In this document: piece by piece, positions 6,080-31,199 of the stretch | Position numbering within the stretch: the stretch's first letter is position 1 | How the letters are laid out: each line of letters starts with the position of its first letter | From: Rhizaria sp. SCN 62-66 | Taxonomy: Eukaryota | Direction: 5' to 3' | Length of the DNA: 35,803 nt | Assembly (NCBI GenBank): GCA_001724265.1 | Contig: MEDY01000314.1 | Coordinates: 1-35,803 of the forward strand | Made by a program: the position numbers and the translations under genes | The notes under the pieces: generated by a model | Told to the model about the DNA's origin: nothing | The model's database searches: none | Seen by the model: only the letters and a program-made list of their open reading frames with translations

Positions 6080-6538
6080 ACGCGTCAACTGGACATGAGT
6101 GCTGATCGCGGGTGCGTGTATGTGTCGGAGTGAGCATGAGGCGAAAGTGCAGCTGAGGGTGATGTGAGGAAGGTTATGAAGTGTTTACTCGCAACGTAAA
6201 GCTTTTGTTCTTTCCAGTTGACTCACTTGCCTTGTCTTTCAAGGATAGTGATCGAGAATGGTTTTTTTGCGTAGAAAATGTGTGTTTATAAGTTATTATT
6301 AATGTATGTATACAAAAGTATTTTATCACAAGCAGTACAGCATGCAGTCTTGGACCTTGTACGTCGATTATGTTGGAAATCTGATATGTGATCGAATCAG
6401 AATTGTAAAACATGTGTATTATTTGTGAAATGGCCACGACACCCTCATGTGCGTGACAGCTCAGTATCAAAAACAACATGGCACAGAGACAGAGCATTTG
6501 ACTATTTATCTCCCCAGCAAATGTATCTGGCCGCTCAC

Positions 6539-9837: not shown

Positions 9838-10568
9838 ATGGCAGACCACCCTGGCGCAGATCACCGTGAGCTCGCTGACAATGGTCGTATCTGCGACCTC
9901 CATGTCGCGCTCGCTGAGTTCATGGCTCTGACGACTTAGAGGGACTCTTTTGAACGTCTCTAGGCACGATGATCCGGCTTGACGACGAAAGGTTTCCTGG
10001 CAATGCCGCGCACTTTCGTGTAATGGCTGCAAATCGCCGTCTTGGGACTGATCTTCATACGTGTTTCGTGCCAGCGGACCAGTGTACGGCGGCATGATTG
10101 TCATTCGTCACGCTGTACCATGGGCGCGAGAACGCAAAGCTGTCCTGTGCCACGCAGCCTTTGTTGCTTCCGCGCAGCGACGTTGTCTGCGGCGAGTACA
10201 CAGAGCCGACGGACACGGACGAGACCGCGTCGTATCCCGCTGGCACTGTGCTTATGTATGCCGATAGCGTTGCCGCAGATCGGGATCTTGACAGCAGGTA
10301 TTGCGGCCTCCCGTGGTTCATCGTCTTCAAGTTGTGCCCCACAAGCCTGCTACGCGGCACCGTGCCCGTGGGCCGCGTGGTATCATGCGTGGCGGATGAC
10401 GAGCCTTCGGACGACGAACCTTCGGACGATGACAACATGGACAGGCCCTTTGACGCCGCGATGCTGCAGTGCTTTGAGACGCGCTGCGGGACCAAGGAGT
10501 GCAGTGTTGGCGCCCGCGTGGCGCCGCGTGGCGGCGCTGTCCGCTGAGTACCGACGGCTAAGGCATAA
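9838..10568 (+). pseudogene. Probable decayed gene fragment of unknown family
   Basis: Intermediate-GC, protein-like reading MIRLDDERFPG...CTAA*LSFVTLYHG...GAVR*VPTAKA* with in-frame TGAs at 10095 and 10545. The upstream piece from ATG 9838 is in another frame and contains TAG/TGA. Includes a 15-nt duplication (DDEPS x2). Confidence 0.45.
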
Positions 10569-10735
10569 GCGATAACCTTGCCTTCCAATGTGACAATGAA
10601 AATCTGACATTTACTATCACATGATAATATGAACCAACTAATGTGTTGGTCTTGTATTTTGTACCAATAAAACGTCTTCAGTCAGTGATTCAAGTTATAT
10701 ATCGTAATTCTAGTTAACCAGGGTGTGTCTTCTCT

Positions 10736-13570
10736 TCACCACATCGCACTGCCTTTCATTGCCACTCCCGCGCCCTGGAGCCGCATGGCCGCGAGCATCT
10801 GTGGCAGCGAGAGCTGCGTCACCGCGCGCTCTTTGTTCGTGTCCATCAGCCGGAACACCGCCTTGCTCTTACTCTTGCTCCTGCTTTTGTGCTGGCTCTG
10901 GCTGCGGCTCATGCCAGCGCCGCTGCCGCTGCCACCGCTGAAGACGTCGCCGTCGGCCTCGCAGTCGGGCGCGGGCAGCGGCGCGGTGCCCACGGCCGCA
11001 GAGACGTCGGACGACACGGCCGCGCCCCACAGCCCCAACAGCACGCCCTCTGCAGTCGCGCTCGCGCTCGCGGTCGCGGTCGAGCTGCTGCGACCGGCGC
11101 TGTGAGCAGCTGGTACGAGGGGGAGTCCGGACCAGAGCTGGCACAGCGTCTCAGCGGCCGCAGCCACCGCGTCTGCGGTGACGCCGGCAGTAGCAGCTGC
11201 GCCCACTGTAGCAGCGGGCTGCAGCATAGCCGTGGCCGCGGCCGCGACGGCCGCGCTGCGGGGCGGCGCCGCGGCCCACGCCACGAGCCCCCCCGCGGCC
11301 TCGGCGGCGGCGTCCAGCCCCGCCTCGGCCCAGACGCGCGCGCCCAGCCAGGCCGCGAAGGCCGTCAGCAGACACAGAGGCGCGCTCGCGAGAGCTGCGC
11401 TCGCGGCGGCCGGCGCGGCGGCGGCCGGCGCGGCGGCGGCGGGGGGGTGTGAAGCGCTTTGGGGCTGCTTCTGCAAGAACATCGCCAGCATGCCCCTCTG
11501 CTGCAGCTGTTGCTGCTGCTGAGGCTTCGCCGCCGCTGCTGCTGCCGCCGCCGTCGTCGCCGCCTCCGCAGCGGCAGCTGCTGCAGCGCCGGTGGCCGCG
11601 GCGGCGAGTGTAACTGCAAGCGCGGCGAGCCACGCGTTCCGTAGCTCCGTGACGGCGACGAGCTTGATGGGCAGCAGCGTGCGCAGCTCCCAGCTCCGCC
11701 CCGGCCGCTGCAGCAACTGCCACGGCCGCGCCGGCAGCGGCGGCGGCGACGGCGACGGCAACGAGGACAGCCCTGAGTCGTCAGTAGAGTCACTACCGCC
11801 ACTGCCACTGCCACTGCGATGACACTGCGACTACGACTGGGAGAGCTCTTGCTGCTGAAGCTTTGGCCTTGGCTTCGGCGACTGCGCCTGTGGCCGGGGC
11901 ACCCGAGCGGTGACCGAGAGCGGACGCGTCGCCCGGTCGCAGTCGGCGAAGGACGTGAAGGCCAGCCAGAACGGGCTCCGGCGCAGCGCCTGCGCGCACT
12001 GCGCCCGCGACGGGGAGCCCTCGTGCGAGCGCAGATGCGAGCGCTGCTGCTGGCGCTGCTGCTGGTGCAGGAGCAAGGCTGACACCGGCGCAGCAGTCGT
12101 CGCGTCGCCCGCGTGCATCTCGCCGTCAGCATCGGCGTCAGCGTCAGCGTTGGCGTAGGCGTCGTCACTCATGCCAGAAGCAGCCGAGCGCTTGCTGCTT
12201 GCAACCTTCGAGTTCTGAGTAAAATACGACAGAAACATGGCTGATTGACTCGTTTTGCCCTTGTTGTCACTGTTCGCGCCGCCAACAGCGCTAAACATCG
12301 CGCCGTCGCCGGCATTATTGCTCTCGCTCGTTGTTACCAACGCTGAAGACGTTGATGCCGCCGCCGCAGCGGTCGCCGCAGCGTCGTCGTCCGTCGCGAG
12401 GCGCGCAAACAGGTCGTCGTCGATGGAGCCGCAGTCGCTGTGTTCGCAGTCGCTGCCGCCGGCGCTGCCGTCGTCGCCGTCGCCGTGGCCGTCGTCGTCG
12501 TCGTCGCTGTGCTGCGGCGGCTCGCGGTCGCAGCCGTCGCCGTGGCGGCAGCGGCGGCGGCGGCGGCGGGCGTGCGCAGCAAAGGCAGCAACGGCGGCGC
12601 CGGCAGCAGCCGCAGCGGCTGTTGCGGCAGCCGTCGCTGTCGCTGGCTGTGATTGTAAGTGTGATTGTAAGTGTGAGTGCGACTGCGGGTGCAAATGTAA
12701 GGGTGCGTGTAAGGGCGTCCGCAGCGCGCGAGACAGCGCCGCGGGCTCGGGCGTATACACAAGAGAGCCCTTGGTCACGACCGCTGGGAGTTGATGCTGC
12801 TGGTATGAATCGTTCTCGCTCGCACTCGAAGTCGCAGTCGCAGAGAAGTTAGCACTCGCGCTAGCACTCGCGCTGAATCTAGTACTCAGTGACTGCTGCT
12901 GCAGTAAATGTTGCGGTTGGAAAGGAGAAGAGGGGATGGCGAACGGCGAGTGTGTCTGCGACTGTGAGCGCGATAGCGAGCGCGTGTGCGACAGAGACGT
13001 CGACAACAGAAGTGACTGCGGCTGCAGCCCCTCCTTAGCATCAGCATCGTCCTCGTCGTCCTCCCGCATACTCACTGGCCGAGACATGGCGCCACCAGCG
13101 GCCGCAACTGCACCCGCGGCGGCCGCAGTGCTCGCGTAGGAGGAGGAGGCGGAGGCGGAGGCCGTGGCGGAGTGCGCGAGCGCGGCCGCAAGCGCTGCCC
13201 ACGACTGCTGCGCGCACGCACGGGGCCAGACCAGCGCGTCCAGCGCCGACACCGCACGCGACAGCGCCGCGGGGGATGACAAATGCGCTGCAACGGCTGC
13301 AGCAGCGGCAGACGCAAGAGCGACGACCGGCGAGGCGGATACAGTGGGGGTTGCGAGGGCAGACGCTGCAGCGAAGGCGGCGGCGGCGAGGTCGCTCTGC
13401 CAGGCGGAGACGGCTGCTGGAAGCGACAGCGCGGCGGGGGCAGCGGGGCCAAAAGGAAGTGCCGGTGATAGCTCAGCGCTGGTACGCTTGGAGCGTGTTG
13501 CGGACTGTGGCGTGCGGCCGGAGGCGCGGAACTGAGAGGGCTCGGCGCCCGCAGCGGGGCCGAACTGCAT
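10736..13570 (-). CDS. Hypothetical protein, ~944 aa, single exon, with an in-frame TAG at 11833-11831
   Basis: ORFs 11831..13594 and 10736..11761 share a frame and are separated only by one TAG (ELSQS*SQCHRSGSGSGG). There is no AT-rich spacer or intron signal between them. ATG at 13570; TGA at 10738-10736. Confidence 0.75.
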
Positions 13571-14374
13571 CACACTATAGCGCAACCGGATCAAAAATTT
13601 AGAAAGAGTATATCAGGCATTAAGTGAGTCACCGTTAATTGACTCTATTCGTAAGCGCAAAATCTTATCATAACGATGGTGGACGGAAATACAGGGGCCT
13701 GATAGTCGTCTTCTTGATGGCGCGCTTCGACGCGCGACCACAAAGCAAAAACGCTTCTTTGAGAGACGAAGTTTCGCAAGATCCAGCGGTGGCATTTCAT
13801 CGTCATGAAGCCGTGATTTCTTGCAGTGATGTTTGCCAGTGGGTTATATCTCTGTATGCAATACCACGCGCTTCATGGCGCGGTGTACCGACTGGGATGC
13901 GGGCATAAGAAGAAGTATCGCGAAGTGGGGGCGACGGCTGGCACTCGCCTCTCTCTCGATCAACTTCATTTTTGTATATTTCTGCGTGCAGTCGTCATAA
14001 CAGTCGCTGAATAGCGTACTAGACTTTAATTTGCCACACGTTCTGTTGGATTTTAAATTGTACACTTGCTTGCAATGGATCGCAACACATGTAATATCTC
14101 CTTTCATGTTGGGGTCGGAGCTTTATTGACCCAGCTCAGATCCTCTTTCGTCTTGTTTACCCTGCTTCGGGAACACATTCTCTCACCAAGAAGTTTAATG
14201 TAGAAATACTTTCTCATGACTTCAATCTCAAAACTATGTTAAAACGTCATTTTTACGTCTCTTATCGCCAAAAATCTCTCTTCCAATTTCCACCTCCTCC
14301 TTTCGTCCTCTTCGTTCAACTCGGCAACAAATGTATTCTCGTGTATACTTGTGCCCTTTGTGCAGCGCATCCGG
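13571..14374. promoter_or_regulatory. Divergent intergenic region (promoters and 5' UTRs of two genes)
   Basis: AT-rich spacer between start codons at 13570 (-) and 14375 (+). Confidence 0.4.
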
Positions 14375-16530
14375 ATGAGTTTCCTCGCCGAGTCGATCGA
14401 CTCCGCGTGTGCGGGTAAGCGCCCCGTGCGCATCATTGCGGAGACCCTGCTCATCGCCGGCGCCGTCAAGCTCGCTGCCTCGCTCTTCCGCCGCGTCCGC
14501 CGCCGCGGCCTCAAGGCCACTCTGACCGGGCTCGCGCTCTCCACGGCCGCGGCCGTCCCCGGCGGCGGCTCCGCCGTCTCGGCCTCGATCGCCTCCACGA
14601 TGCGCAAGTCGATGATCCCAGCGGCCGTGCTGGCCGAGGCCGTGAACCACGACCTCCCGGCCGAGGGCGTCCCCGCCGCCGAGCTCCTCGCTAAGCTAAA
14701 GACCTGGGCCGGCGACGAGAAGGCGCTTTGGGGCGCGGGGCGCGCGTCGGGCGCCATCTACCACGGCGGTGAGGAGCTGCTCCGCACGCTCACTGAGGCC
14801 TACACCATGTTTGCGCTCAGTAACCCGCTCCACCCCGACCTTTTCCCCTGGGTTCGCAAGATGGAGGCTGAGGTCGTCCGCATGACCTGGTACGTTCCGA
14901 CCACTTCGTCGATAATATAGCACTCTCTGGTCAGTTTATTGTTGCATTACCGTTATAACTGTGTATGCCTCGTCTGTTTGTCGCTCTTAATGGTGACACA
15001 ACTCTTTAGTACTCTTACTCTTGACCACAAACGTGACACCAACCTGACACACACTATCACTCATGTTTTCACTTCCCCCTTGCCACCGCTCCTGCGCCTC
15101 TGTCTGGCCGCCGCAGCTCTCTGTTCAACGGCGGGCCCGAGACGTGCGGCTCGATGACCTCGGGCGGCACCGAGTCGATTCTGATGGCGATGAAGGCTTA
15201 CCGCGACCGCGCGCTGGACGAGCGCGGCATCACCGCGCCCGAGCTCATCGTGTGCCGCACCGCGCACGCCGCCTTTGACAAGGCCGCCGCGTACTTCCGC
15301 ATTAAGCTCGTGCAGCTCGAGGCGGACCCGGTGACGCAGACGCTGCCGCCGGCTGCCGTGCGCGCGGCTCTGACGGCCAACACCATCGCCATCGCGGCCT
15401 CGGCGCCGACCTTCCCGCACGGCGCCGTGGACCCCGTGCCCGAGCTGGCCGCCATCGCCGCCGCCGCGGGCGTGGGGCTCCACGTTGACTGCTGCCTGGG
15501 CTCCTTCGTCGTGCCCTTCGCGCGCGCCGCCGGCGCCGACATCCCCGCCTTCGACTTCTCGGTGCCCGGCGTGACGTCCATCAGCGCCGACACGCACAAG
15601 TACGGCTTCGCGCCTAAGGGCTCGTCGGTGGTGATGTTTGCGTCGCCCGCGCTGCGCCGCCACATGTACTACGTCACCACGAGCTGGGTCGGCGGCATCT
15701 ACGCCTCGCCCACCATTACCGGCTCCCGCGCCGGCGCGCTCGTCGCGGCCACGTGGGCCGCGCTTATGTGCGTCGGCCGCAAGGGCTACCGTGAGGCCGC
15801 GGAAAAGATGCTGGGCGTGGCGGCGCAGCTGCGCGCGGGCATCCCGCGCATCCCGGGGCTCAAAGTCGTCGGCAAGAGCGCGCTGACCGTGGTGGCCTTC
15901 ACGGTCGACGAGAGCAGCCCCGACAGCAAGGACCGCGAGGGCGGCAACATCACCGTGTACAAGGTGTCGCAGGCCATGAACAAGCTCTTCCACTGGCACC
16001 TCAACTCGCTGCAGGCGCCCGCCGCCGCGCACCTCTGCGTCACCTGGGCCAACCACGAGACAGCGCGCGACGCGTTCCTCCGCGTACGTATTGCAACATT
16101 ATATTCAAATATGCACACTTATGGCACATCTATCGTCGATACAACGCTGTTCTTTGTATTGATCCAAGAATAACGAATAGCTTTAAGTTGAGACTTTAAC
16201 TTAAAGCGTTCTTCCTCCTTCTGTTATTCACCACCACTTATCTCACACGAAATCTCATCTTTTTTTCTCCTTCACTTTTATTTATGCTACCACGATTTAC
16301 AGGACCTTGCCGCCGCTGTGGAGGCCGTGCGCGAGCGCCCCGGCGACTTCGCGGGCGGCTCTGCCCAGATTTACGGCTACGCCGAGGCGCTGGGCGGCGA
16401 CGACGGGCCCGCGGACAAGGACGCCCAGGAGGGCTCCGGCAAGACGGGCGCCGGCGGCGACACCGGGCTCCTCGCAGACTTTGCGCGCGCGTACATTGAC
16501 GTCCTTACCTACGTTCCCGACAGGACCTAA
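14375..16530 (+). CDS. SGPL1: Sphingosine-1-phosphate lyase (PLP-dependent, group II decarboxylase fold); exons 14375-14889, 15117-16083 and 16303-16530, ~569 aa
   Basis: [78 protein letters not shown]-lysine motif [23 protein letters not shown] and AQIYG. Hydrophobic N-terminal segment. Ends in TAA. Confidence 0.95.
14890..15116 (+). other. Spliceosomal intron (227 nt)
   Basis: GTACGT...ccgCAG. Splicing restores MTC-SLFNG. Confidence 0.92.
16084..16302 (+). other. Spliceosomal intron (219 nt)
   Basis: GTACGT...tttaCAG, phase 0, gives AFLR|DLAAAV. Confidence 0.92.
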
Positions 16531-17148
16531 GTCAGTCATCAGCTCGGAAAGAAAAGCGAGGGCTAATGGAGAGGCGCTGCGCTGTGAGTCAATTCGTTTG
16601 ACACAATCGAGCGATATGCGCAGTGTACTTGGGGCTGGAGGTCTGAATGATCCTTATTATCTGTTTCCTTTTGTTACGCGTGTGTTTTGTTTTTGTTTTA
16701 AGCAATTATACACATCAATCAAGTCAATATTCTAATTTTTTTTAGCTCAATAATCTCGTTCGTGATCGTAAATCGCGCGGCTTCACTTTTTTTTTCGGTC
16801 CTTGGTCCGCTCCGTCCGCTCCGTTCGTCCGTTGATGCCCATCGAGCGAGACGTTTGGAAGTGAATATGGCACCCAAGGCCGTCTTTGTTTGAAGTGTAA
16901 TTTTACGAGAATACTGCAATTGCTGTATATATTCGTGCCATACGAACTGCTTTTTATTTGACGACTCACCACCTGCGAACATTACGATTCTTTGCGTCCC
17001 ACAGCGGCTAGTACCCACCCCCGAGTCTGATCTCAAAGCAACCTCTGCCAAGAGCCCTGTCTCAGCTCTCCGCAGCTCTTTGGCCGTTGTCGTCACTCGG
17101 TCCTTGCTCCACTACCCTGCGGCTAGCCCTTTTCCTGCCACAGCCCTG

Positions 17149-17385
17149 ATGTTCTCTTTCGGCGCCAAGCCCGCCGCGCCCGCGGCTGCGCCCGCTGCCG
17201 GTGGCTTCAAGTTTGCGGCCGCGCCCACCGCCGCCGCCACTGCGCCCGCTGCCGCGCCTGCCGCCGGTGGCTTCTCTTTTGCCGCTAAGCCGGCCGCGGC
17301 CCCCGCAGCCGGCGGCTTCTCGTTCGCTGCCAAGCCCGCCGCGCCCGGCGCGGCCGGTGGCTTTTCCTTCGGTGCCAAGCCCGCT
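17149..17385 (+). repeat. Five degenerate FG-nucleoporin-type repeats (GGFSFAAKPAA)
   Basis: Units MFSFGAKP, GGFKFAAAP, GGFSFAAKP (x2) and GGFSFGAKP separated by Ala/Pro spacers. Confidence 0.85.
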
Positions 17386-18520
17386 ACTGGCCTCGCCGGC
17401 GCCGCCGTGCCCGCCGCGCCGGCCGTGGCCACCGCGGGCGTGCCGCTGCCCTCCGGCGCCATTCCCAGCGCGACGCTGCACAACCCCGCGGCCAGTGACC
17501 CGCTGATCGACCGTATTAACGCCATCTCTCGCGCGCTCGACCTCGCCTCCTCGCACTGCCGCCTGCAGACGGTGCTCTACAACAAGACCAACCCGGCGTT
17601 CCTGTCGCAGGTCGTCAAGCCGCCGCACGCGGACGCCGCCGTGTGGGCGCGCGGCGTGGCCGCGAACCCGGACCCGACGACGCTGGCGCCCTGTCTCGTG
17701 GTGGGCTTCCCCGACCTCGAGCGCAGGCTCGGAGAGCACCACAAGGCCGTCCAGTACGTTCCGCACGAATTATAACGCGTTGAGGATCCATGTTATTTAC
17801 GTGGTATATATGTGTGTGTCTTTGTGTGGTATAACTATTTTAATCATAGAACAGGTCACCAACCTCAGCCTTCGTATAAGCCATCAGCCTCTGTCTTACT
17901 TTATTATTATTTTGTGACGAAACATGCATTGATGTGTTCTTTATCTCACGGTATCTTTTTACTTGATGTGCCTGCCCCTAACCTGTTATCTCTCTCTCTT
18001 GCTCAGGACTCACCTGGACGCGCTCGCGGCGACCGGCGAGCGCGTGGACGCGATGCGGCTGACGCAGCAGCGCCACGAGGCCGAGCTGGACCGCCTGCGC
18101 TCGACGGCGGCGGCGCTCTCGCAGCGCGTGCTGCGCGTCGCCAGCCAGGCCGACCTGCTGCGCGCGCGCGGCGTGCCGTTGGCGCCCACGGAGCTGGACC
18201 TGCTGGCCAAGCTCGAGCGCATTGACGCCGAAGTCTCGGGCCCCGGCTCGCGCCTGACCGCGCGCGTCGCCGACGCCAGCGCCCGCGTGGCCGCGACCCG
18301 CGACCGGACGGCCACCGACGCCGGCGGGGCCGCGGCGCAGGGCACGCTGGGTGGCGGCGAGCAGGCCGCGGCTGCCGCGGTGGTTGCCGGCGTAGCGGGC
18401 GCCGCGGGAGCCGCGCTGGAGACGCAGCGCCAGCTCGTCGAGGAGCTCGTGTGCGAGACGGCGCTGGTCAAGGCCGACGTGGCCGCCGCCGTGCGCGTGC
18501 TTGAGGCCGGCCGTCGCTGA
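17149..18520 (+). CDS. NUP54: Nucleoporin Nup54/Nup57-like; exons 17149-17753 and 18007-18520, ~372 aa
   Basis: N-terminal FxF(G/A) repeats, then CRLQTVLYN...KPPHADAAVWARGVAANPDPTTLAPCLVVGFPDLERR, then a coiled-coil region with LSQRVLRV...LRARGVPLAPTELDL. This is typical Nup54 architecture. Ends in TGA. Confidence 0.88.
17754..18006 (+). other. Spliceosomal intron (253 nt)
   Basis: GTACGT...tctctctcttgctCAG, phase 2 (CA|G), frame-preserving. Confidence 0.9.
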
Positions 18521-19013
18521 AGCGGCTGAACTACAACGCTTCATCATAACCCTGAGTCGGCAATCAACAATGAAAAGTGTGCCTGTGAATAGCAAAGAGC
18601 GCGAGCGAGCAGTGATCAGCAAGTGATGTTATCGACTGACTGACTGCAATTTGGTGTAAGCTTATCAAAACGCAGTGTGTGTGGTCTATAAGTATGTCAG
18701 CGGGCCAAAGTGTAATAACAAACGTCTCACAGGTATTGTGAGGTTTAATAAAATTAATGTTTTACATCGATCTTTAGATTGATAATTGTGTTGTATTGTT
18801 TTATTCTTTCGTTTACACCAAAGTTAGTAAGCGTGTGTGAAAGACACTCCGTTTTTAGTGGCGCGTATTTTGCTTGTTGATTACTATTTATACAAACGCT
18901 CTTGCGCTATTACGCTCAAATACATTGTACATGAAACTTTACATGGACACCTACTAGTCAAATACTACTGCTATATTTAACATCGGCAATACTGTCAAAT
19001 GTGTGCGTTTTGC

Positions 19014-19802
19014 TTAGAACACGGTGGCAAAGACGCCCTTATGTCCCTCGACAGGAGCGCCGCTGCTGCCGCTGCCGCTCCCGCCGGCGTTTCCGCCGCT
19101 GCCGCTGTCGGCGTCGTCGTCGTCCGAGTCGGCAGGCGGCTCCTCCTCGTGCGCGGGTCGGTAATAGAGACTCGCGTTCTGCGTCGCCTGCTCGAACTCA
19201 AGCCGCTCCTGGGGAAGGGCAGAAAATAAGAATTGCAAAGGAAACGAAGCACAGTGAGCATTATATAAAAAGATTCTGAACATACGTCAAATGTGACTCA
19301 ACAGACAAATGGTCTTGGTTCGAACACCAACCCAACGACATCAAATTGCTTTGCGACTCCGTGTGTCAGTCAATAAATCCATCAAAACAGCAAGAGTGCC
19401 AGTGATAGCGATGTGTCGAGTACGTACCTGGCGCTTCTTGGTCTCGTCCGCAACGTCGGCGTAAAGGTTATCGAAGATGAGCCGCCGCACGTTCTCGTCC
19501 TGGACGTCGGTGGCGCGGGTCTGCGCGGCCGAGAGCTGCTCCTTGACGCCGGCGTCGAGGTCGTAAAGCGCCATCTGCTCCATCTGTTGCAGCGCCGTCA
19601 GAGCGTCCGTCTCGACGCCGCGCATGAGCGTGGAAGCCTTGGCCGCGGCGAGCGCGGCCTCGGCCTCGGCGGCCGTCACGCGCTTGAGCACCGACTCGTG
19701 CAGCACGCGGGCCTCGCGCGCGATGTGCGTCTGCTGGCGGTCCAGCGACGTCGCCGTCGCGGACGCGGGCGCCGACGAGGAAACGGAGGACGGGGACGAC
19801 AT
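19014..19802 (-). CDS. Hypothetical helical/coiled-coil protein; exons 19802-19428 and 19208-19014, ~189 aa
   Basis: Two GC-rich blocks joined in frame by a canonical intron (ETKKRQ|ERLEFEQ). Ends in TAA. No family recognised. Confidence 0.8.
19209..19427 (-). other. Spliceosomal intron (219 nt)
   Basis: GTACGT...ttctgcccttccCAG on the minus strand, phase 0. Confidence 0.88.
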
Positions 19803-20745
19803 GGGGGCGGTCAGAGGATTATCGAGTGCGATAACTCGGGGCTGTGACAACGGTGGATACGGGCGGGACCGACTGGGAGCTGTTTGCTGTGGGTCGAAAC
19901 GACAAAGTGCAGCGCAGGACGGTGAAAGCACAGCGAGGTGTAGTAAGGTCCTGGTAAAGCCTATCAGGTCTAATACGCTGTGGCGGGGCGGGGTAACTTC
20001 AGATATTGGATGTGGAGCGCCGGACGGATGCGAAGGAAAGGTGGGGTGAAGCGAAGAACAGTGAGAGAATGATATAGCAGCGAGCGCACAGAAGAGTCAC
20101 ATGAGGGTTTCAAGACGTAGAAATTTGACTATGAAAGAAAATAATAGGTATATGTGTGGTAGTGGTCTCCTGTTTGAAATTGACGCTCGCAAGTGCCGTA
20201 GTCTATCCGTGTTGAAAGGAGGCTGGGTACTGGGCCAAAGCAACCATGGTGACCGTGGGATGGTGGGCTACAGTGGTCGAAGAGCTTCGGTTGGCGTGGG
20301 AGTCCGATCTGCGGGTAGTTGCCACGATGCAGTGTGACCGACAGCTGCAATTTAATAGTGTCAGCGAACTATATCCTTTTTTCTTAAACTGCATACTCTT
20401 TTTATCATTTCTAAAGCTTTCTTTGGCCTCCGCCAACTGCACTTGCCGATACCCCGCTCACACTTGATCTATCCCCAACTCATTCCCTCCACTCCCCGCC
20501 GTGCTGCGCGCCACCATCGCATTACTTCACAATATTTCTTCCGCTCCCTCTACAGCGCACTTTAAGACACGCGGCTTGCACTGTCTTGTCGCGCATCAGC
20601 TTCTCTACACTCGCATCACTCTCTTCCCCGCTCGCGCCCGCCCTCGCGTCCCTCAGGCCAGCACTCCGCGGCGCAGCGCGTTGCGTCTATCGCGGCCCCC
20701 AGCGCTGCCCGCGCCTACCCCTCCCGGCCCGTCCGCCGCTGGCCC
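19803..20745. promoter_or_regulatory. Divergent intergenic region and 5' UTRs
   Basis: Spacer with an AT-rich core between start codons at 19802 (-) and 20746 (+). Confidence 0.35.
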
Positions 20746-23700
20746 ATGCAGAGCTCTCTTGTGCGCCGCTTCGCCGCGCGTGCCGGCGCCCATACACCCG
20801 CGCCCGCGCTCCGGCCCTCGCAAGCGACGACAGCAACAGCTTCTAGTGGCGCTAACCACCCCTGCTCGCTGCCTCAGCGCGCAGCCTCGTCGTCCTCAGA
20901 GTTCTAGTCCCAGCAGCGGCAGCAAGGCAGGCCTCCGCGGTCGGTGAACCGGCAGGCGCAGGCAGTCGCCGAAGCCCGCCGCCATGACCGCGCCATCAGC
21001 AAGGGCCCCGGCCGCGGCCACGGCCACGGTCATGACAACAGCCACGGCCATGGCCACGGCCACAGCGTCCACGCGCGCGCGCACGCTCACAGCCCTTTTC
21101 CGGGCCCGGCCGCGCATGCGCACGCGCACGCGCACGCGTCCCGCGGCGGCAGCAGCGGCGGCGGCGGCGCGAGCAGTTCCGCTCTGAGCAGCTCTGCTCT
21201 GAGCAGCTCCGCCCTGGGCGGCTCCTCGCTGGGCAGCGCGCAGAAACGCGTTACCGCGTCTGCCGCCGCCGCCGCCGCCAAAGAGGCGGACCCGGAGGCC
21301 GCGGCCGAGGCCGCCGCCTAGGCCGCCGCCGTGCCGCGCTTCATGTACCCACTGCCACTACTGTCACCGCCAGCGGCCGCAATCGCTCTCCGCGCACGCG
21401 GTCCCCACGGCCGCCGCAGCACCGCCGGCGACGCCGAGGCCGAGGCTAACGTCGGCGAGAACCATGGCCAGAATGAGGGTGATGGTGGGGATGACGTGGT
21501 CGCCATGCTGGGCGCGGACGCCGGCGGTGATGTCGCGGCCTGGCGCCTCCGCGCCGCCGCCGCGCTCGTCGCAGCAGTCTCCCGCACCCGCGTTGCGCTC
21601 GCCCTCGCCCGCGCGTCGGTTCCTGGGGCCGCCGGCGCGGCTGACGCCTCTGGCAGCAACGGCACCGACGGCGGCAACGGCGCCGGGCCGCAGGTCAGCG
21701 CGGCGGACGTGGGTTCCGCGGCCGCGGCGGTGCCGTTCATCCGGGACCTGGCTATGCAGACGATGCTGTTGCTGCCCCCCGCGCTCGACGCCGCCCCTCG
21801 CGTGAACCCCAACGCTTACAGCGACAGCGACGCCGCGGGCGCGCACACCGACGCCGACGCCAACGCCAGCGCCAGCGACTGCTCGAGTGCCCTCCACAGC
21901 GACAGCGACGGCCGCGCGGCGTCGCCGGCCGCGGTGTCGGTGTCGCCGGCCGCGGCGGCGCGGTGGGCCGTGGCGCACGGCGCGGGCGGGCTGCGTGCGC
22001 CCTACGTTGCGCTGGGCTACGAGGACGCGCTGGCGCCCGCCTCGGCCGACGCCGCACTAGCCGTGGTGCGCGGCCCGCTCGAGGCGCTGCCGGAGGTGCT
22101 TGCGCTCGGCCAGCTACCCGTCGCGCGTAAGGGCGTCCTGGACGCCAGCGCCAGGGAGGACGGCCGGGGGAAGGGCAAGAACAAGGGCAAGGGCAAGGGT
22201 AAGAAGTCCGACGCTGACGCAGACGCCGACGCTGACGCTGACGTTCCTGAGGCTGCTGAGGCTGCGACTGCTGCCGAGACTTCCGTTGCGCCTGTTCCGC
22301 CGCCTGCTGTCACCACGCTGGGCGGGTGCGGCAGCGCCGTCGTCTCCGTCGCTGCGGCCGCCGCCGCCGCCGCCGAGGCCGTGGCCGCGCGCGCGGGCGT
22401 GCTGCTGTCGACCTCGGCCAGCCCTCTTGCCGCCGCTGCGCTCGCAACGCTGCCGCTGCTCGACCCCGTCGCCGCCACCGCCGCCGCCACCGCCTCCTCA
22501 ACCGCCGCCGCTGCCGCCGCCTCGACCGCTGCCGCCGCCGGTGCAGGCGAGACCGACTCTGAGCAATCGACCGCGGCTGCGGCCGCGGCTGCGGCTGCGG
22601 CCTCGGTGTCGGTGTCGGTGTCGGTGTCGCCGGCCATGGCTGCGCTGGCGCTGGCCGACCCCTACGGTCGGCTCGTGCTCTCGGTCACGCACACGGACGC
22701 CACGGAGGCGCCCCGCACCGTACCCCTGCCCGCCACGCCCGCCGCCGACGCCGCCGCCGCCGCCGCACACTCGGCGACGGCGACGCCGCCGCCGCCGGCG
22801 GTATCGGTGGCCGGGGCCGTGGCCGCGGCCGACGCGGTGCTGGGTCACGCGGCGGTGCGCGATGTGCCGCTGTCCTCCGCGCTCGCGGCGGCCTACTTCG
22901 TGCTCGCCAACCCGCCGGTAAGTACCCCCTTAGAGGACGACGGCCCCTCCAGCACCAGCACCACCACTACCACTAGCAGCGGCAGGAGCAGCAGCAGCGG
23001 CGGGTCTGTGAGCGTGATGGACACAGCCGCGCACTCAGAGGCCGACGTCGCGGCCACTCTCGTCGCCGTGCTCACCACTCCCCTCGCTCACAACACGGGC
23101 GACGGCGCTGGCGCGGGCGCGCGCGCGATGATGATGACGCCCGCTGAGGCCGCCGCGAGCGCGCGCGCGGCCCTGCGCGCGCTGTCTGCCGCGCGCGCGG
23201 CGGGCCGCATGGCCGCGGCGACGGCGGCGCTGGCGCGTGTCGTGCGCCGCGTCTACGCGCTGCCGGCGCGCAACGCGCTGGGCAACCTGGCCTCGCTGCA
23301 GACGGGCGCGGGCGAGGCCGCCGCGGCCGCCGCCACGACCGTGTTCGCCAGCTTTCACGCCGAGGCCGAGGCGCTGGCCGCCGCGGGCCGCCTCGTCGCC
23401 GCCGCCGCGCAACGCGAGCTGCAGTTCTACCCCAGCCAGAGCCACGGCGCAGATGCTGCCAGCACGGGCAGCAGCAGCGCCAGCGCCAGCAGCGCCGAGA
23501 CCGCCGCGCGCGCCGAGACGGAGCAGGCGCTGGCGACGCTGACGCTGCAACTGGGCGCCGTGCTGCCCGACTGGGCCTCGCAGGCGGCGCTGGCGCGCGC
23601 GACTGCGCCCGCGGGGCCCTGGGCCGGCCGCCACGCCTTCGCGGCCTTCGCGGACCGGCCCTGGACGGCGACCGAGTCCGCGGTCAAGTTCGCCACTGAG

Positions 23701-25344
23701 GCCGCCGCGGCCGCCGCCTCGAGCGCCGCCACGGCCGCCGCGACCGCAGCCGGCAATGCGCCCGGGCTCGGCCGAAGCGGCTTCTCCGCGGCCGCCTCGA
23801 TGGCCGGCAACGCGGCCGCCACCGCCGTGCGCGCCGCGGCCTCAGTGGCGCTGGCCTCGGCCGAGGCCGGCCGCAAGCGATCGCCGGGACAGCTCTCCGC
23901 CCACCCTGTGTTCCCCGCCCCTAACAGCAACAGCAACAAAAACGACACCAAAGCCAAGAACAAGACCGATAACAAGAACACTGGCGCCGCCAGCGCCAGC
24001 GCCGGCACAGGCGCCGAGGCCGACGCCGAGGCCATCGCCGTCGCCACGGCCGCCGCCGCCGCGGCCGCCGCCCCCATGATCGCGGGCCTCGGTGCGCCGG
24101 TGTGGCACTCGCTGCTGTCGCCGTTCCCCGCGTGCTACTCGCTCGAGACGCGCGCGATCCTCGCCGCGGGCCCGCCCTCGCCCGCGCTCTACGCCGCCGC
24201 CGCGCGCGCGCTCGTGTCGCGCCGCACGGCCGCCGCGCGCGCCGCCGCGCTGTCGGCGCCGCGGCCGCTCGCCACGGCCGGGCTTGAGTCCGTCGCGGCC
24301 GAGGCCGACGCCGTGGGCGTGCGCGAGCTCGTCGACTACGCGGCGCCGCTTCTTGGCGCGGCGCATACCAGGGAGGCCATCGTTGCCGCCGTCGTCGCAG
24401 ACAGGCAGCAGCAGCAGCAGCAGCAGCAGCGCCAAGACGATGTGACCGACGGAGCTGACACTGTTCCGGCCTCTTCTCCGGCAACTACTGCTGAGGTGGA
24501 CGTCGAGTCCGGCGTCTCGATGAACGACAATATCATGCTCTGCGCGGGCTACGCTGCGTACGCTGCGGAGCACCGCGCGCTGAGCGACGCCGGAAATAAC
24601 GGCTCCGACGCGAACGAGGCCACGAGCTACGACGGCGCGGTCTACTCCAACGTGGTCCCCCTCAGCACCGCCCACAGCCTCATCAACAGCCACGGGCTCG
24701 GTCTCGGTCAGACGGGCCGCCGCCGCCGCCTCGGTGCCGACGCCCCCTCGCTGGCGGCGGCGGCGGCGGCGGCGGCGACCTTCGCCGAGGCCGCGCCGGT
24801 GCTGACATTCAATGAGTGGCTGCAGCGCGCGCTGCCTCCGCGCGCGCGCCCGCTGCCGCCCGCGCGCCGCGTCGCCGCTGGGCTGCTGTCATGGCCCGTC
24901 GCCGACGGGCTCGCGGGTGCGCTTGTGGCCATGGCCGCGGCGCCCGCCCTCTCGGCGGCCCCCAGCGGGGGCGCGCGCGCGCTGGGCTTTGGCGCGACCG
25001 TGCTGGGCGAGGGCGCCGAGGACGAGAGCACGGCCTCGGCCCTCTTCTTCCCTTTCACCGACCTGCACGCGCGGCGCCTCGGCGCGCGGGCTGAGCCCGT
25101 GACGGCGGTGCCCGCGCTCAGGGCGCTTGTGTCGACGCGCGCACTCTCCTGGGCAGACTGGGTCGCCGAGCACGCGGCGCAGGTACGACACTTCGCCGGG
25201 ATACATCACACTCGGAAATGAAACCATCGTGACTGTTATTTGATATCGTTGTTATTCGTGCTTGTTAATGATTCCTTTTCTATTTTGAACAATGTCTCAC
25301 GACTCTCCACACCTTGCTTTCTTTCTTTCTCACTTGGTTTCGAT

Positions 25345-25380
<36 letters not shown>

Positions 25381-28300
25381 AGGTGCGCCGTTTTGATCAG
25401 CTGGACAAGGAGCTCCGCGAGCTTCACAGCCGCGCCGCCGCGCAGCTGCCCCGCGGCTCCCCGCACGCCGCCGCGCTCGCCACGGCCCGCCAGGCCATCC
25501 CGGCCCTCGCCGCCGCAGTCTCGCTCCTCCGCCCCGACGCCGCCGGCACCGCCGAGGCGTCAGTGCATGCGGCGCTGTCCCGGTCGCATGCGAACAACAG
25601 CGGCAACGGCGTTGACGTCGAAGTGGCGATCCTGAACTACGACGGCAACGGCGCCGCCGCCGGCTCTGGCGCCGCCGCGGGCAGCGCGTCGGAGCTGGCG
25701 CGTCGCCCCGAGCACGTGCTGGGCGCGCTGGGCGTAGCCATCGGCCCCGAGGCGGAGGCCGCGGCCGTTTTCGCGGACGCCGTCGCCCTTCGCGCGCACA
25801 GCGCCGCCCTCGATGCCAACGCCAACACGGCAAGTGCGGTGTCCGCCAGCAGCATGCCGCTGCTGGCGGACGACCCCTGGCAGCTGCCCGCTCGCCGCCG
25901 CCGCGCCGCCGCCGCCGCGCCCCTGCTTAACGCCTCGGGCTACATGATTTTCCGCGCGGGCACGCGCTTCGCCGCGCCGCTGCCCAGCGCCGCGCAGAGC
26001 GGGCTCAGCTACAGCCACACCGTGCCCAACGCAGGCGGCGACGCGGAGCCCGTGGAGGTGTACACCGCGGTCCCGGGTGCGCTGTCGTCGCTGGCGGCCT
26101 TCCCCGCGCGCTCCGTGGCCGTGGACCCGCGCCGCGTGCTCGTCGGCTTCGACGGTGTGGTCGCGGCCCCCCACACCGGGCTCGTCCCCGCGCTGCCGCC
26201 GCTCGCCGCCGCCCCGCCCGCGCCGGCCCCAGCGCACGCCCACGCGCGTACGGCGCTCTCGCGCTCGCTCGCGGACGGCAACGGCGCCACCAACAGCAGC
26301 GCCGCGCGCGCCGGCGGCGGCGGCTTTGACGCGCTGCTGCCGCCCGCGCTGCTGGCCGCCGCGGCGCCGCTGCCCGGCTACGCACTCGATAGCGCCAGCG
26401 CCGCCGCCGTCGCCGCCGCGCACGCCGTGCTGCCCGCGACGGCGACGAGCAGCGCGGGCCACAGCCACGCCTTCGGCCCGGCCGTGGCTGCGCTCGTCGC
26501 CGACGCCGTGCGCCTCCCGCGCCTCGCCGCCACGCTCGCGCCCGACTACCGGCGCGAGGACGCCGCCGCCGCGGCAGTCGCGGCCGCCGTCGCCACTGCC
26601 GCCGCCAGCGCCGCCAGCGCCGCGCGCAGGGTCGCCGCCACCTCTGGCGATGGCGGCGGCAGCGAGCAAGACAAGGCCGACGCCGCGGCCGCTGCGGCGG
26701 TCAACGCGGCCGCCGCGGCCGCCCTGCTCGAGGCCCTCACGCCCTCCGCGTCTTCCGCCTTGGACGCGAACGCCAGGGCCGACGCCAGCGCCAGCGCCAG
26801 CGCCAACACTGCACTGGGCGCTCTGAGCGCAGCGCGCGGCGACGTGGGGCGCATGACGCGCTCCGAGCGCGAGCACTTCCTACTCGAGTGCGCCACGCGC
26901 CTGCCGCCGCAGCAGCTCGAGGCGCTGCTGGACGTGCTGTCGGGCGCCGACCCGCGCGAGCGCGGCGCTGCGCAAACGCTGCAGGACGCCGTGCTGGGCA
27001 TGCCGCCTATCTACGCCAAGGCTAGCCGCCGCCGCAAGCGCAAGCGCCTGTCCACGGCCGCGGCCGCGCCGTGCACCGCGCCGGGCGAGCAGGAGTACCT
27101 GCAGCAGCAGCTGCAGGCGAAACTCGACCAGCAGCAGCTGCAGCAGGAAGTGGCTGAGCGACAGCGAAAGCGTGAGCACGATAGGAATGCGGCTGGCGCC
27201 GCCGGCAGCGGCAGCATAGGCATCAGCAGCAGCAGCATCACCTCGCTGGCCAGCCCGGCCGCGATGGTGGCCGCGCGCATCGCGCAGGTGCCGCCCGCGC
27301 CGCTCTCAGTCCCTGAGCCTGCGGACGCGGCCGCGGCGGAGCTGCGTGCGGCGCTGGCGCAGCGGCCGCTGTGGGCGCGCGGCGGCGAGCAGGCGCTCGA
27401 CCTGGCCATCTCGCGCCGCGTGCTGCGCGAACGCTGGGCCGCCAACAACGCCGTCAAGCTCTACGGCAGCGACAGGGCCAAGGACGGCAAGCTCGCCAAG
27501 AACAAGGCGAAGGGCATCGCCGACGCCAGCGCTGCCAGTGCTGAAAGCGCGGAGAGCGCTGTCCCGATGGCTGCCCCGGCGGCGGGCGCGGGCGTGGTGT
27601 GGCCCGAGGCCGACCTCGACATCGAGCTCGTCCCCGCCGCGACCGTGAGCTCGACCACGAGCGCAACCGTCAGCGCGACTGTTAGCGCGAGCGCGCACGT
27701 CCACCACGTCGACCACGTGGACCACAGCGACCTCTCCGCGGCCGAGGCGATCGCTCTCGACGCCGACGCCGATGTTGAAGCTGACGCTGACGCTGACGCA
27801 GACGATGACGCTCCTGACACAGACCGTGCCGCCGAAAGCAGCAGCAGCAACAACAGCAGCAGCAGCGGCGGGGGCGACAGCGGCTTGAACGACCTGGCTG
27901 CTGTCACGGCGGCCGCCGTGACGGCGTCGCTGCGCGGCCGCCCCTCGCAGATCGTCGCCAGCCCGCGCAAGAGCACAGGCAGCACAGGCAGGTCCGTGGG
28001 CGGCGTCAGCGGCGTGGGCGGCGTGGGCGGCGCGACCGGCGCCCGGCGCTCGGTGCTGCCGCCTCTGCCGCCGCTGCAGCGCCTGCGCGCGGCCCTGGAG
28101 CCGCCGCTGCTGCCGCTGTCGGCCTCCGGCGCGCCCGCGGCGCGGTCCGTCTCGCTCGAGGCGGCCGCGCTCGAGGCGAGTCTGCTCGTGGCGCACGCGC
28201 GGCCGTGCTACCTGACGCTGGGCGAGCGCGTGTCGGTGCGCCTCGTCGCGCTGTTGCGCGCGGAGGAGTGGTACCGTGCGCTGTCGACGCTCGCACAGGC

Positions 28301-31199
28301 CCGCCGCGAGGGCGTCATACTGTGCCGGTTCGTCTACAGCGTCATGGTCGCCAAATTCGCGCTCTTCGGCCGCCTCGAGTTCGTCTCGGCGACGGCGCAG
28401 GCCATGCTCGCCGACGGACTCGCCGACGCCGACGCGATCGTCACCTGGGTGTGCATGGCCTCGCGCGTCGCCGCGGGCCACACCGGCGGCCCCGCGATCG
28501 AGGAGTTGGACACGGCGCTGGACGCACTGCTGGACCTGGAGCCGCCGATGTCGGCCGCGCGCACGCGCCACGTCGCCGCGCAGCTGCGCGCGCACGGCCA
28601 CTACCAGCGCGCGCTGGGCACGGCGCTCTGCATGGCCGACCTCTCCGAGGGGCTCAACGGCGAGGGCGGCGTCGCGGCCGAGGTGCTCCCACTGCTGCGC
28701 TCGATGGTGGACGACGACGGCGCCGTGTCGACCTGGGAGGCGCTTCAGGCCTTCGCGGACCACCCCGCGCTGGACGACATCGTGGCCGCCTTCGTCGACG
28801 CCGCCAGTGCCACGGGCCGCGGCGCCGCGCAGCTCCACGCGCTTTTCGCAGCGCACCCCGGCGCGCTCCCGGCCTCCGAGGCTGCGGCGGCGCAGCAGGT
28901 AGCAGCAGCCGCTCAGGCCCAACAACAGGCGTTCGCCAAGGCCAACGCTGGCGCTGGCGCTGAGGGCGCGGACGACGGCGTGGACGCGGACGCGGTTCTG
29001 GGGCGGTACGCTGAGGTGCCCGACATGTGGTGCGCGCTGCTGCGCACGCTCGCGCGCACGGCCGCGGCCGCGGTGTGGGACGCCGGCGCCTCTGTGAGCG
29101 ACGACCTGGTTGGCGGCGCGGGCCCGGTCGGCGCGCTATCCGCGGCCGGCGGCGGCATGCGGGGGCTGGGCGTGGTGGCGACGCGCGAGGGCGTGACCAG
29201 CGTGGCGCCGCCGCGCGGCACGCACCTCACCTCCGCGGGCCGCCTCGTCTGGCCCTCGGACGCCGAGGCCGCCGACGAAGCCGACGCTGCCGAGGGCGGT
29301 GAGGGCAGTGAGGGCCAGCACGGCGCCGGCGCCGGCGGCGACAGCAGCAGCAGCGGTGGACCGGGCCTCAAAGCGCAGCAGGTGGTCTTCAGCCCGCCGG
29401 TGCGCGCGTCTGTGCGCGCCGCCGTGCCGCCCGACGTGCTGGCCGCGTTGACCGACTGCCTAGCGCGGCTGCGCACCGCGGGCGCCACGGTCGCCGACCC
29501 GCTGCTCTTCTACCACCTCTCGCTGCTCTTCGGCGCGCCGGCCGTGTTCGACACGGCGCCCGTCGCGGCGTGGCTGCGCGCGCCCCAGACGCAGGCCGCC
29601 ATCGCCGCCAGCACTGCCGGCTCGCGCGCCGCGGCCCGCGAGCTGCGCACGGCGCCCGACCCGGCCGCGCACTCGCGCCTCGCGCGCCTGCTCGCGCTCT
29701 CGCGCGCGGCGCCGCACGCGCCGCTGGGCAGTCCCGCTGACCAGCTGCCTTTCGCGGCGCTCGAGGCCGCGCTCCGGCGCGGCGAGCCGCTCGCTGAGGC
29801 CGCGCTGCAGCCGCCGCTCGAGGCGCGCGTGTCGCAGCCCTTCGCCGACGCCGTGTCGGCCGCCGACGCGCGGCTGGCGCTCATGCCGCGGCCCGACGAC
29901 GACGTCGTGGCGGCCTTCGTGGCCGCGAACCCCTTCTTCGCGGGGCAGGACCCCGAGCGCGTGCGCCGTTACGTCGCGCGGCTGGCGGCGGGACACTTCT
30001 ACACCGTGCGCGGGGAGCCTGCGCCGTGGCTCTTCGGCGTCGTCGGCATGGGCGACGTCGCCGCAGCGCCCAGCCAGCTCTATCTCGCCGTCGCCGCCGC
30101 GGTCGACGTCGCCGACGGAGCCGCCAGCGCCAGCGCCAGCGCCGCGGCCTCGGCCGCCTACCTCGCAGTGGCCTCCGGCGAGGACACGGACAACTTTGCG
30201 GCTGCCGTTGATGCTAGCGCTGCGCCCGGGTCCGTGCTCGCCGCAGTGGCGGTCTCGGTCCCCCTGGAGGGCGCGGCGGCGCTGTGCGGCTTCACGCGCT
30301 TTGTAAACCTGCTCGACGAGGCCACCGTGCTGCCCGCCGCGCTCTACCACCAGCTGCTTTCGATCGCCGCCGCCTCGGCCGCCACGGGCGGCAACAGCGC
30401 GGCCGCGATCGTGGCCGCGACCTCGCCCGGCGCGAACTCGACGGCCTCTGCCGCAGCCTCGAGCGCCGCCGCCGCCGCCGCCGCGCTGCCGCTCGCGCTG
30501 CACGTGTTGGACCTGTTGTGGACACACCGCCTGCGGCCGTCGCCGCCGCTGCTTGACGCGCTGATGCGCGTGCTGCTGGGCGCGCGGCGCTTTGCCGCGG
30601 CGGCGCAGCTGGTGCGCGCCGCGCTGGAGCTGCAGACGGCGCTGCTGCCCAGCACGCTGCGCTTTGTCTTCCTCGTCTACGAGGCCGTCGTCTCACGCGA
30701 ACTGCTGCGCGCCGCGGCGGGCGGCGCGGTCGGGCCGTCGCGGTCCCTGTGGGACGTTGACGCGGAGCTGGCCGAGCTGCTCACGGCCGTGGCCAACTAC
30801 GCGCATATCTGCAACACGGACCGCCGGAGCAGCGTGACGCGCCGGCGCCTGGCCGCGCACACGGCCGCGCAGACGGCGGCGCAGCAGGAGCGCTCCATGG
30901 CGCAGCACAAGATGCGCAAGCAAGCGCATGCCAAGCTCGCGCAGGGCGAGGGCTACGGCGCTGTGTACGCGGCCAGGGCCCGGCGCAGGGAGGCTGAGGC
31001 CTACACGCCCGACTTCTCCCAGACGCAGCCGCAGGCCGAGGCGCAGGCGACGGCCACTGTGCCCAAGTTCATGAAGCCCGTGGTCGTGGCCGCGGCAGCG
31101 ATGAGCGTCCCGGTCGGTCAGAACGCGAGTGAGAGTCTGGAGCAGAGTCAGAGTGTCTACGACTTTCACAACGGCGGCGACCAGGAGGACGATGAATAA
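20746..31199 (+). CDS. Very large Ala-rich protein with degenerate PPR-like motifs, probably mitochondrial; exons 20746-25182 and 25380-31199, ~3,418 aa; two in-frame TAGs (20905, 21319)
   Basis: One frame runs from ATG 20746 (MQSSLVRRFAARAGAH..., presequence-like) through two TAGs into ORF 21331..25221, then a phase-0 intron leads into ORF 25314..31199. PPR-like segments: ALSTLAQARREGVILCRFVYSVMVAKFALFGRLEFVSATAQAMLADG and ALHVLDLLWTHRLRPSPPLLDALMRVLLGARRFAAAAQLV. Ends in TAA. An alternative start at ATG 21343 applies if TAG is a stop. Confidence 0.7.
21172..21216 (+). repeat. Three tandem 15-nt repeats encoding SSSAL
   Basis: agcagttccgctctg / agcagctctgctctg / agcagctccgccctg. All differences between copies are synonymous third-position changes in the main frame. 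Confidence 0.85.
25183..25379 (+). other. Spliceosomal intron (197 nt)
   Basis: GTACGA...(CA)16-G ending in CAG; AT-rich; phase 0 (HAAQ|EVRRF). Confidence 0.85.
25347..25378 (+). repeat. (CA)16 microsatellite
   Basis: Perfect 32-nt CA repeat directly visible. Confidence 0.97.

Follow-up and report, generated by a model that had tools for sequence, protein, structure and literature searches.

In-frame UAG codons in two genes of a GC-rich rhizarian contig: possible decoding of UAG as an amino acid

The contig MEDY01000314.1 of Rhizaria sp. SCN 62-66, analysed here over its whole length of 35,803 nucleotides (nt; the window), carries three TAG triplets inside reading frames that otherwise look coding: TAG#1 in gene 1, on the minus strand, and TAG#2 and TAG#3 in gene 2/3, on the plus strand. 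The best single explanation of these sites is that UAG is decoded as an amino acid, to which we give a probability of roughly 0.5; one 36-kb window does not prove it. Either full reassignment or efficient suppression would give UAG its amino-acid meaning, with UGA and UAA as the working terminators, and the share of true reassignment within that figure leaves this more specific claim somewhat short of an even chance. Ribosomes would insert an amino acid at UAG, which might involve a transfer RNA (tRNA) with the anticodon CUA, or an altered eRF1. Gene 1 would then encode one protein of 944 codons, whose conserved C-terminal segment is reached by translating TAG#1 (11831-11833), and gene 2/3 would begin at ATG 20746 and be translated through TAG 20905 and TAG 21319. 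This one hypothesis covers all the observations, whereas the standard code needs two separate oddities within 36 kb and, in addition, a chance absence of TAG terminators.

An earlier note, made from the letters of this DNA, had reported three in-frame TAGs in two genes (11833-11831 on the minus strand, 20905-20907 and 21319-21321 on the plus strand) and the absence of in-frame TAA or TGA from the intact genes. Both statements hold: the exon models, which comprise about 9,370 codons in 11 genes, contain three in-frame TAGs, distributed over 2 of the 11 genes, and not a single in-frame TGA or TAA. The terminators of the gene models are TGA in six cases out of ten and TAA in the other four, TAG being found at none of these gene ends, which form a small sample. 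Two further stop triplets prove to be intronic, namely TAA at 33542, which lies within a ...TTAACAG intron 3' end, and TGA 19341 in the minus-strand gene 19017-19802, whose true end is a TAA.

TAG#1 is the strong site, and the most informative of the three. The features of gene 1 to which we refer below are:

10736..13570, minus strand: gene 1, from ATG 13570 to TGA 10736-10738, 944 codons with one in-frame TAG
11831..11833, minus strand: TAG#1, in frame between the 593-codon and the 364-codon open stretches of gene 1
11114..11818, minus strand: conserved protein segment just downstream of TAG#1, residues 599-833 of the read-through protein P0001, including ARPWQLLQRPGRSWELR...NAWL and SAPLCLLTAFAAWLG

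Gene 1 is bounded by AT-rich spacers (13577-13696 and 10569-10740), and its first ATG, at 13570, sits at an AT-to-GC transition like those of the MCCC2 and SGPL1 genes of the window; it matches no Pfam family. Scans of GC content at the third codon position (GC3) and with a codon model place coding sequence in one and the same minus-strand frame before and after TAG#1, and the best-scoring coding segment of the gene (10769-11689, score 74) is the one that follows it. No further stop or frame break occurs in the 364 codons past TAG#1. The triplet itself occupies the CAG position of a local (CAG TCG) repeat. The possibility that gene 1 is the antisense of a plus-strand gene was rejected, as five TGAs interrupt the 495 codons of the mirror plus-strand frame.

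When P0001 was compared exhaustively by HMMER with 1.84 billion cluster representatives a single match was obtained, P0002 (E 1.5e-22), a protein of 268 residues whose gene lies on a single JGI contig of 11,856 nt. The alignment covers residues 599-833 of P0001 and begins five residues past the TAG (BLASTP E 3e-16), and tblastn of P0002 on the window returns frame -1, 11812-11039. The residues conserved between both proteins include Trp, Cys, Pro and Arg and fall in non-repetitive blocks (ARPW..RPGR.WELR, SAPLCL.T.FA.W.G and W.AAPP). The best-conserved block corresponds to 11728-11627, while the first in-frame ATG after TAG#1 is found only at 11491; hence, under the standard code the conserved segment would be left without a start codon of its own. 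Additional searches yielded no other relative: residues 520-958 of P0001 had no match among proteins of 526-1,677 residues, a profile of the C-terminal part of gene 1 together with P0002 recovered P0002 only, pattern scans of genome and viral contigs returned no relative, the patterns drawn from the alignment being of low complexity, and tblastn of P0001 and P0002 on 80 loci found only the window's own sequence in locus L001.

Under the standard code, TAG#1 would be a fixed nonsense allele, or gene 1 would be shortened and truly end there, with the 364 codons past it a recently silenced remnant, while TAG#2 and TAG#3 would lie in a long GC-rich leader of a gene that starts at ATG 21343. We consider this account rather unlikely but take it seriously, and the evidence from gene 1 bears on it directly. 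The supposed remnant is intact and holds the best coding score of the gene, and what a pseudogene or a nonsense allele would be expected to show past TAG#1, that is, further lesions or a loss of coding signal or expression, is not seen there; a very recent lesion is possible.

Expression is indicated by the contigs of an RNA library. Record 17 of set X5 is a contig of a poly(A) metatranscriptome from a separate study, made in another year; it spans 11593-11918 with 0 differences and no gap, contains TAG#1 unspliced and covers 238 nt past it. The X5 library behaves as RNA at this locus: all eight listed X5 pieces are exonic, and X5 record 21 runs from the exact exon start 16303 to 16712, like the complementary DNA (cDNA) contig of set X6. 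Concerning the presence of UAG in mature messenger RNA, TAG#1 is found in a poly(A) contig and TAG#2 in a DNA-like run only. The X5 strain is distinguished from the window by deletions of 10 and 11 nt, an in-frame deletion of 6 nt and a few single-nucleotide polymorphisms, and has the same TAG#1; a nonsense allele under the standard code would have to be common to two strains that differ by these indels and polymorphisms, and to be present in RNA. The deletions of the X4/X5 strain map to 16209 and 16558 (10 and 11 nt; intron and 3' untranslated region, UTR) and to 22603 (6 nt, in frame, within gene 2/3), so that indel lengths follow coding constraint.

Recurrence in other data also bears on an error of sequencing or assembly, or a minor allele chosen by the assembler, as the origin of the TAGs. 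TAG#1 and TAG#2 recur with 0 differences in X5 and X4 contigs, of another study and year, and no alternative letters are reported at any of the three sites, though contigs drop rare variants. TAG#2 is present in X4 record 14 (20389-21099, 0 differences; a DNA-like run) and also in L001, a locus identical to the window along 7,728 nt and perhaps from the same sample. Independent support exists for these two sites. TAG#3 is covered by none of the listed contig pieces, which stop at the GCC-rich repeat that contains it; this is what an error has in its favour, the lack of listed cover in itself counting neither way. Altogether we find an error scarcely credible.

The question of splicing was approached through the introns of the window. 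Eight were delineated, of 90-220 nt and 35-42% GC, each closing with a pyrimidine tract and CAG. Their 5' splice sites are very uniform, with GTACG in seven of them and GTATA in the eighth:

4805-4930: intron
8591-8687, minus strand: intron
from 14890: intron
16084-16302: intron, confirmed by a spliced cDNA contig (X6 record 28, junction 16083|16303)
from 17754: intron
19209-19427, minus strand: intron
25183-25379: intron
33537-33677, minus strand: intron

A TCTCAC-like motif was noticed by eye about 15-70 nt before the 3' CAG in six introns (those of MCCC2, the EF-hand gene, blockJ, gene 2/3 and geneM, and intron 16084-16302, here as CTCAT); it may represent an atypical branch-point consensus.

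None of the TAGs falls within a canonical intron (AT-rich, 90-220 nt, GTACG...CAG). The coding strand of 20460-21400 contains no GTACG, GTATG, GTAAG or GTGAG, and on the strand of gene 1 such 5' splice motifs occur only at 12758, 13071 and 13075, all more than 900 nt upstream of TAG#1. The surroundings of the TAGs have 62-88% GC, and the nearest AT-rich segments (GC below 0.52) are 12201-12256 and 20530-20556, none being within about 360 nt. Two kinds of candidate introns at TAG#1, a 24-nt GTAGTG...CAG stretch right after it and GT..AG pairs of 10-24 nt spanning it, were rejected, as both are far under 90-220 nt and unseen in the RNA-library contig.

These data make unrecognised RNA processing, whether by non-canonical or GC-rich introns, by editing or by upstream exons spliced in past the TAGs, very improbable in our view: over 11593-11918 the contig from the RNA library runs collinear with the DNA, none of the TAGs has a local-type 5' splice motif nearby, and all eight delineated introns are AT-rich, as opposed to the GC-rich TAG surroundings. 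Some observations do point that way. A CAG preceded by the branch-like motif CTACTGAC is found about 55 nt past TAG#1, the start of P0002 near the point equivalent to TAG#1 could mark an exon boundary in the relative, and hidden splicing is a real risk in this DNA, as the two open reading frames (ORFs) of gene 2/3 looked separate until a canonical intron was found between them.

The earlier note had counted these two ORFs, 21322-25221 (1299 codons) and 25272-31199, as separate genes. This count has to be corrected, since intron 25183-25379 joins them in phase into one gene of about 3,400 codons, TGA 25219 being thereby intronic. A (CA)16 microsatellite occupies 25347-25378 of this intron. Neither ORF matches a Pfam family, and residues 1-560 of the query P0003 had no match among proteins of 820-2,610 residues. 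The features of this gene are:

20746..20748, plus strand: first ATG past an AT- and pyrimidine-rich leader, in frame with the main ORF
20905..20907, plus strand: TAG#2, 53 codons past ATG 20746, in the gene 2/3 frame
21319..21321, plus strand: TAG#3, 7 codons upstream of ATG 21343, at the GAG position of a (GAG GCC GCC GCC) repeat
21343..21345, plus strand: next in-frame ATG past TAG#3, where translation would start under the standard code
20746..25182, plus strand: gene 2/3 exon 1, counted from ATG 20746
25183..25379, plus strand: intron joining the exons of gene 2/3, canonical CAG|GTACGA...CACAG|GAG, in phase
25380..31199, plus strand: gene 2/3 exon 2, ending with TAA 31197-31199

TAG#2 and TAG#3 share the frame of ORF 21322-25221, and the only in-frame ATGs around them are 20746 and 21343. 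The segment from TAG#2 to TAG#3 codes in the main frame according to the codon model, with a margin (0.13) equal to that of the 140 codons past TAG#3 (0.13), where control windows of 137 codons have a mean of 0.25 and a standard deviation of 0.10. The tandem repeats between the two TAGs have periods of 3, 6, 12 or 15, all of them multiples of 3. The AT- and pyrimidine-rich leader that is typical of starts in this DNA is found before 20746 and not before 21343, upstream of which the GC content is 0.72-0.87 in each of six 60-nt windows. A start at 21343, as under the standard code, would place five ATGs (20746, 20984, 21032, 21050 and 21116) in a coding-like leader some 600-800 nt long. The remaining leaders are short and AT-rich, and so is the only 3' UTR that was measured (about 180 nt, to 16711/16712). 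It should be noted that the RNA depth over 20575-21241 (3.06 in X5 and 2.9 in X6) is unusable as a measure of transcription, for it sums contigs of other organisms that match the GC-rich repeats.

TAG#2 and TAG#3 are weaker sites than TAG#1. The earlier note had described all three TAGs as flanked on both sides by same-frame coding sequence, with no AT-rich intron or spacer; the latter part agrees with our data throughout and the former at TAG#1 and TAG#3, while upstream of TAG#2 the signal is weak, as the 53 codons from ATG 20746 to TAG#2 are almost without frame signal (margin 0.01).

That lack of frame signal is the first of several points that weigh against a sense meaning of UAG. At the same locus, the main frame of 20566-21321 contains two stops, both of them TAG, and the other plus-strand frames four and three, so that this stretch is not depleted of stops under the standard code; GC-rich 20566-20745, directly upstream, shows no clear frame. 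TAG#2 and TAG#3 could then lie in a long GC-rich 5' leader, between ATG 20746 and 21343. At TAG#1, MAFFT sets the triplet opposite an Arg of P0002, within an unreliable Gly/Ser-rich stretch, and P0002 starts with a Met some 10-15 residues ahead of the equivalent point, near which the relative that encodes it may have a gene start, an intron or a stop. All three TAGs are in low-complexity sequence and none is at a reliably aligned conserved residue.

The pattern that only TAG is found in frame does not discriminate, and we regard it as weak evidence. CAG, GAG, AAG and TCG are common codons here and codons ending in A are rare; with this usage about 72% of random single-base nonsense mutations lead to TAG, and three TAGs out of three stops are expected with a probability of about 0.37 under a nonsense-mutation model. 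One antisense frame of gene 2/3 illustrates the same effect, with 10 TAG and no TGA or TAA in 1,106 codons, since with about 90% G or C at the third position a frame carries TAG almost exclusively. CAG and GAG at the equivalent repeat positions fit single-step nonsense mutations and a Gln- or Glu-like usage of the codon alike. As to the terminators, if TAG normally ends about 20% of genes, none in ten would be expected by chance about once in ten cases. Finally, a changed code has a low prior, and the usage of TAG is very low, about 0.03% of codons, far under that of known UAG-sense lineages.

The standard code gains from most of this. CAG to TAG and GAG to TAG are single steps, the large fraction of nonsense mutations that yield TAG needs no new code, stops are present in all three frames of 20566-21321, the stretch from ATG 20746 to TAG#2 lacks frame signal, the frameless 20566-20745 shows that GC-rich untranslated sequence exists here, and the three sites all belong to fast-evolving low-complexity proteins without a Pfam family. 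What it has to accept in exchange is two unrelated oddities within one window, a lesion in gene 1 and an unusual leader in gene 2/3.

A further possibility is that the code is standard and that a few genes use programmed readthrough at specific UAGs to make both a short and an extended protein. It appears improbable, although it would suit the low number of sites. The context TAG-TCN-CAG is common to TAG#1 (TAG TCG CAG) and TAG#2 (TAG TCC CAG), and the conserved segment past TAG#1 behaves like a functional extension, as in known programmed readthrough, where an in-frame UAG in the mature messenger is followed by a conserved in-frame extension. Unlike those cases, the sites have no stimulatory context or structure in common: the context of TAG#3 differs (TAG GCC GCC), and no outstanding RNA structure was found in the 123 nt downstream of each TAG (z of -1.48, -0.30 and +1.72). 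Furthermore, two of the sites lie close to the N-terminus of a protein some 3,400 residues long, where they make little sense as regulated extensions, and TAG is not the ordinary terminator in any of the ten genes.

Decoding of UAG as an amino acid, as proposed in the earlier note, is thus carried by the coding-like context, the RNA contig, the conserved segment past TAG#1 and the absence of TAG from ten gene ends, and is held back by the lack of a TAG at a conserved residue, by its low usage and by a possible 5' leader. The note had also placed the TAGs in low-complexity regions, outside the conserved genes, and had concluded that the amino acid cannot be fixed; this agrees with our data, none being found in MCCC2, SGPL1 or Nup54. 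Judged from the repeat units around the sites, the best guesses are Gln for TAG#1 and Glu for TAG#3. The preference of the note for Gln is backed by the repeat at TAG#1 and by two of the three contexts and not by the repeat at TAG#3, and its suggestion that Leu reads naturally at all three sites finds nothing here to indicate it. A tentative picture, which we would put a little below even odds, is that UAG alone has independently turned to sense, probably for Gln or Glu, and is at an early stage, in which it has been lost as a terminator and appears about 3 times per 10,000 codons, in disordered low-complexity regions.

The window as a whole corresponds to compact, intron-bearing eukaryotic DNA, whose GC content varies per kb from about 51% to 80%; its exons have 70-80% GC, and its introns and spacers are AT-rich. 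The same DNA recurs in bioreactor and wastewater metagenomes of several studies. Pfam identifies an MCCC2-type carboxyltransferase, a sphingosine-1-phosphate lyase (SGPL1), Nup54, a p34 adaptin-binding-like protein and an EF-hand protein, the MCCC2 and SGPL1 genes each being split by AT-rich introns. The protein clusters closest to MCCC2 were bacterial and those closest to SGPL1 belonged to several eukaryotic phyla, with Chordata and Arthropoda most frequent, a mixture of no taxonomic use. A tRNA scan of the window gave no genes and an Rfam scan no matches. A related species is represented by a spliced metatranscriptome contig, L002 (1-2046), which contains a complete SGPL1, 83% identical to the exon 2 of the window; it has no in-frame stop and ends with TAA. 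A relative with transcript data hence exists.

Some gene models may still change in detail. In the EF-hand gene (minus strand, 6538-6545) the terminal TGA overlaps a perfect GTGAGT (CA|GTGAGT), so the gene may have a further intron and a short last exon, and its terminator call is slightly uncertain. The p34-like ORF has about 100 coding-like codons (1713-2070, plus strand) ahead of its first ATG (2070), where the change from GC-rich 1576-1710 to AT-rich 1711-1756 may mark a first exon and intron missing from the model. A 97-codon ORF at 10254-10547 on the plus strand, with coding signal in one frame, an acidic SDDEP repeat and no Pfam family, converges on the 3' end of gene 1.

Nuclear codes in which UAG and UAA differ in meaning are documented for no more than a handful of lineages. 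If UAG is indeed decoded here, the window would add a further independent case, in a GC-rich organism that is not a ciliate and that uses UAG very rarely, and would show early stop-codon capture as a loss of the terminator before widespread sense use; gene callers set to the standard code would split or truncate such proteins in metagenome catalogues. Should the code be standard after all, the window still serves as a warning that GC3-rich genomes favour in-frame TAG by mutation and composition alone. A literature search on UAG code changes in wastewater eukaryotes returned no report on a eukaryote of this kind.

Among the known systems, the window should not yet be filed as a member of the UAG-only sense codes, because their central feature, many UAGs at conserved positions, is not seen in it: about 9,370 codons contain three TAGs, all of them outside the conserved genes. 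The comparison with the rhizarian exLh (Sainouroidea) makes this plain. There UAG stands for Leu, with 384 in-frame UAGs in 71 genes and Leu at 82 of 86 hyperconserved sites, and the only terminators are UAA (56) and UGA (15) (PMC5304391). The window is similar in lacking TAG terminators (four TAA and six TGA), and unlike exLh in the scarcity of its TAGs, in their absence from MCCC2, SGPL1 and Nup54 and in giving no indication of Leu.

Ciliate macronuclear genomes are generally AT-rich and have very short introns. The window differs from them in its exons of 70-80% GC and its GTACG introns of 90-220 nt, and no ciliate feature was seen in it. Some ciliates are reported to split the meanings of UAA and UAG or to have reassigned UAG alone, and their codes show that both meanings can be uncoupled repeatedly (PMC10553269, PMC11687900).

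The nuclear code of Iotanema spirale has UAG for Gln and UAA as the primary terminator (PMC5304391), and rests there on many UAGs at conserved transcriptome positions, unlike the three sites of the window, which belong to a GC-rich organism and are at no conserved position. The window would resemble it in that UAG alone would be sense, with UAA and UGA terminating, and Gln, as in Iotanema spirale, fits two of the three contexts found here, QS[TAG]SQ and F[TAG]SQQRQQ.

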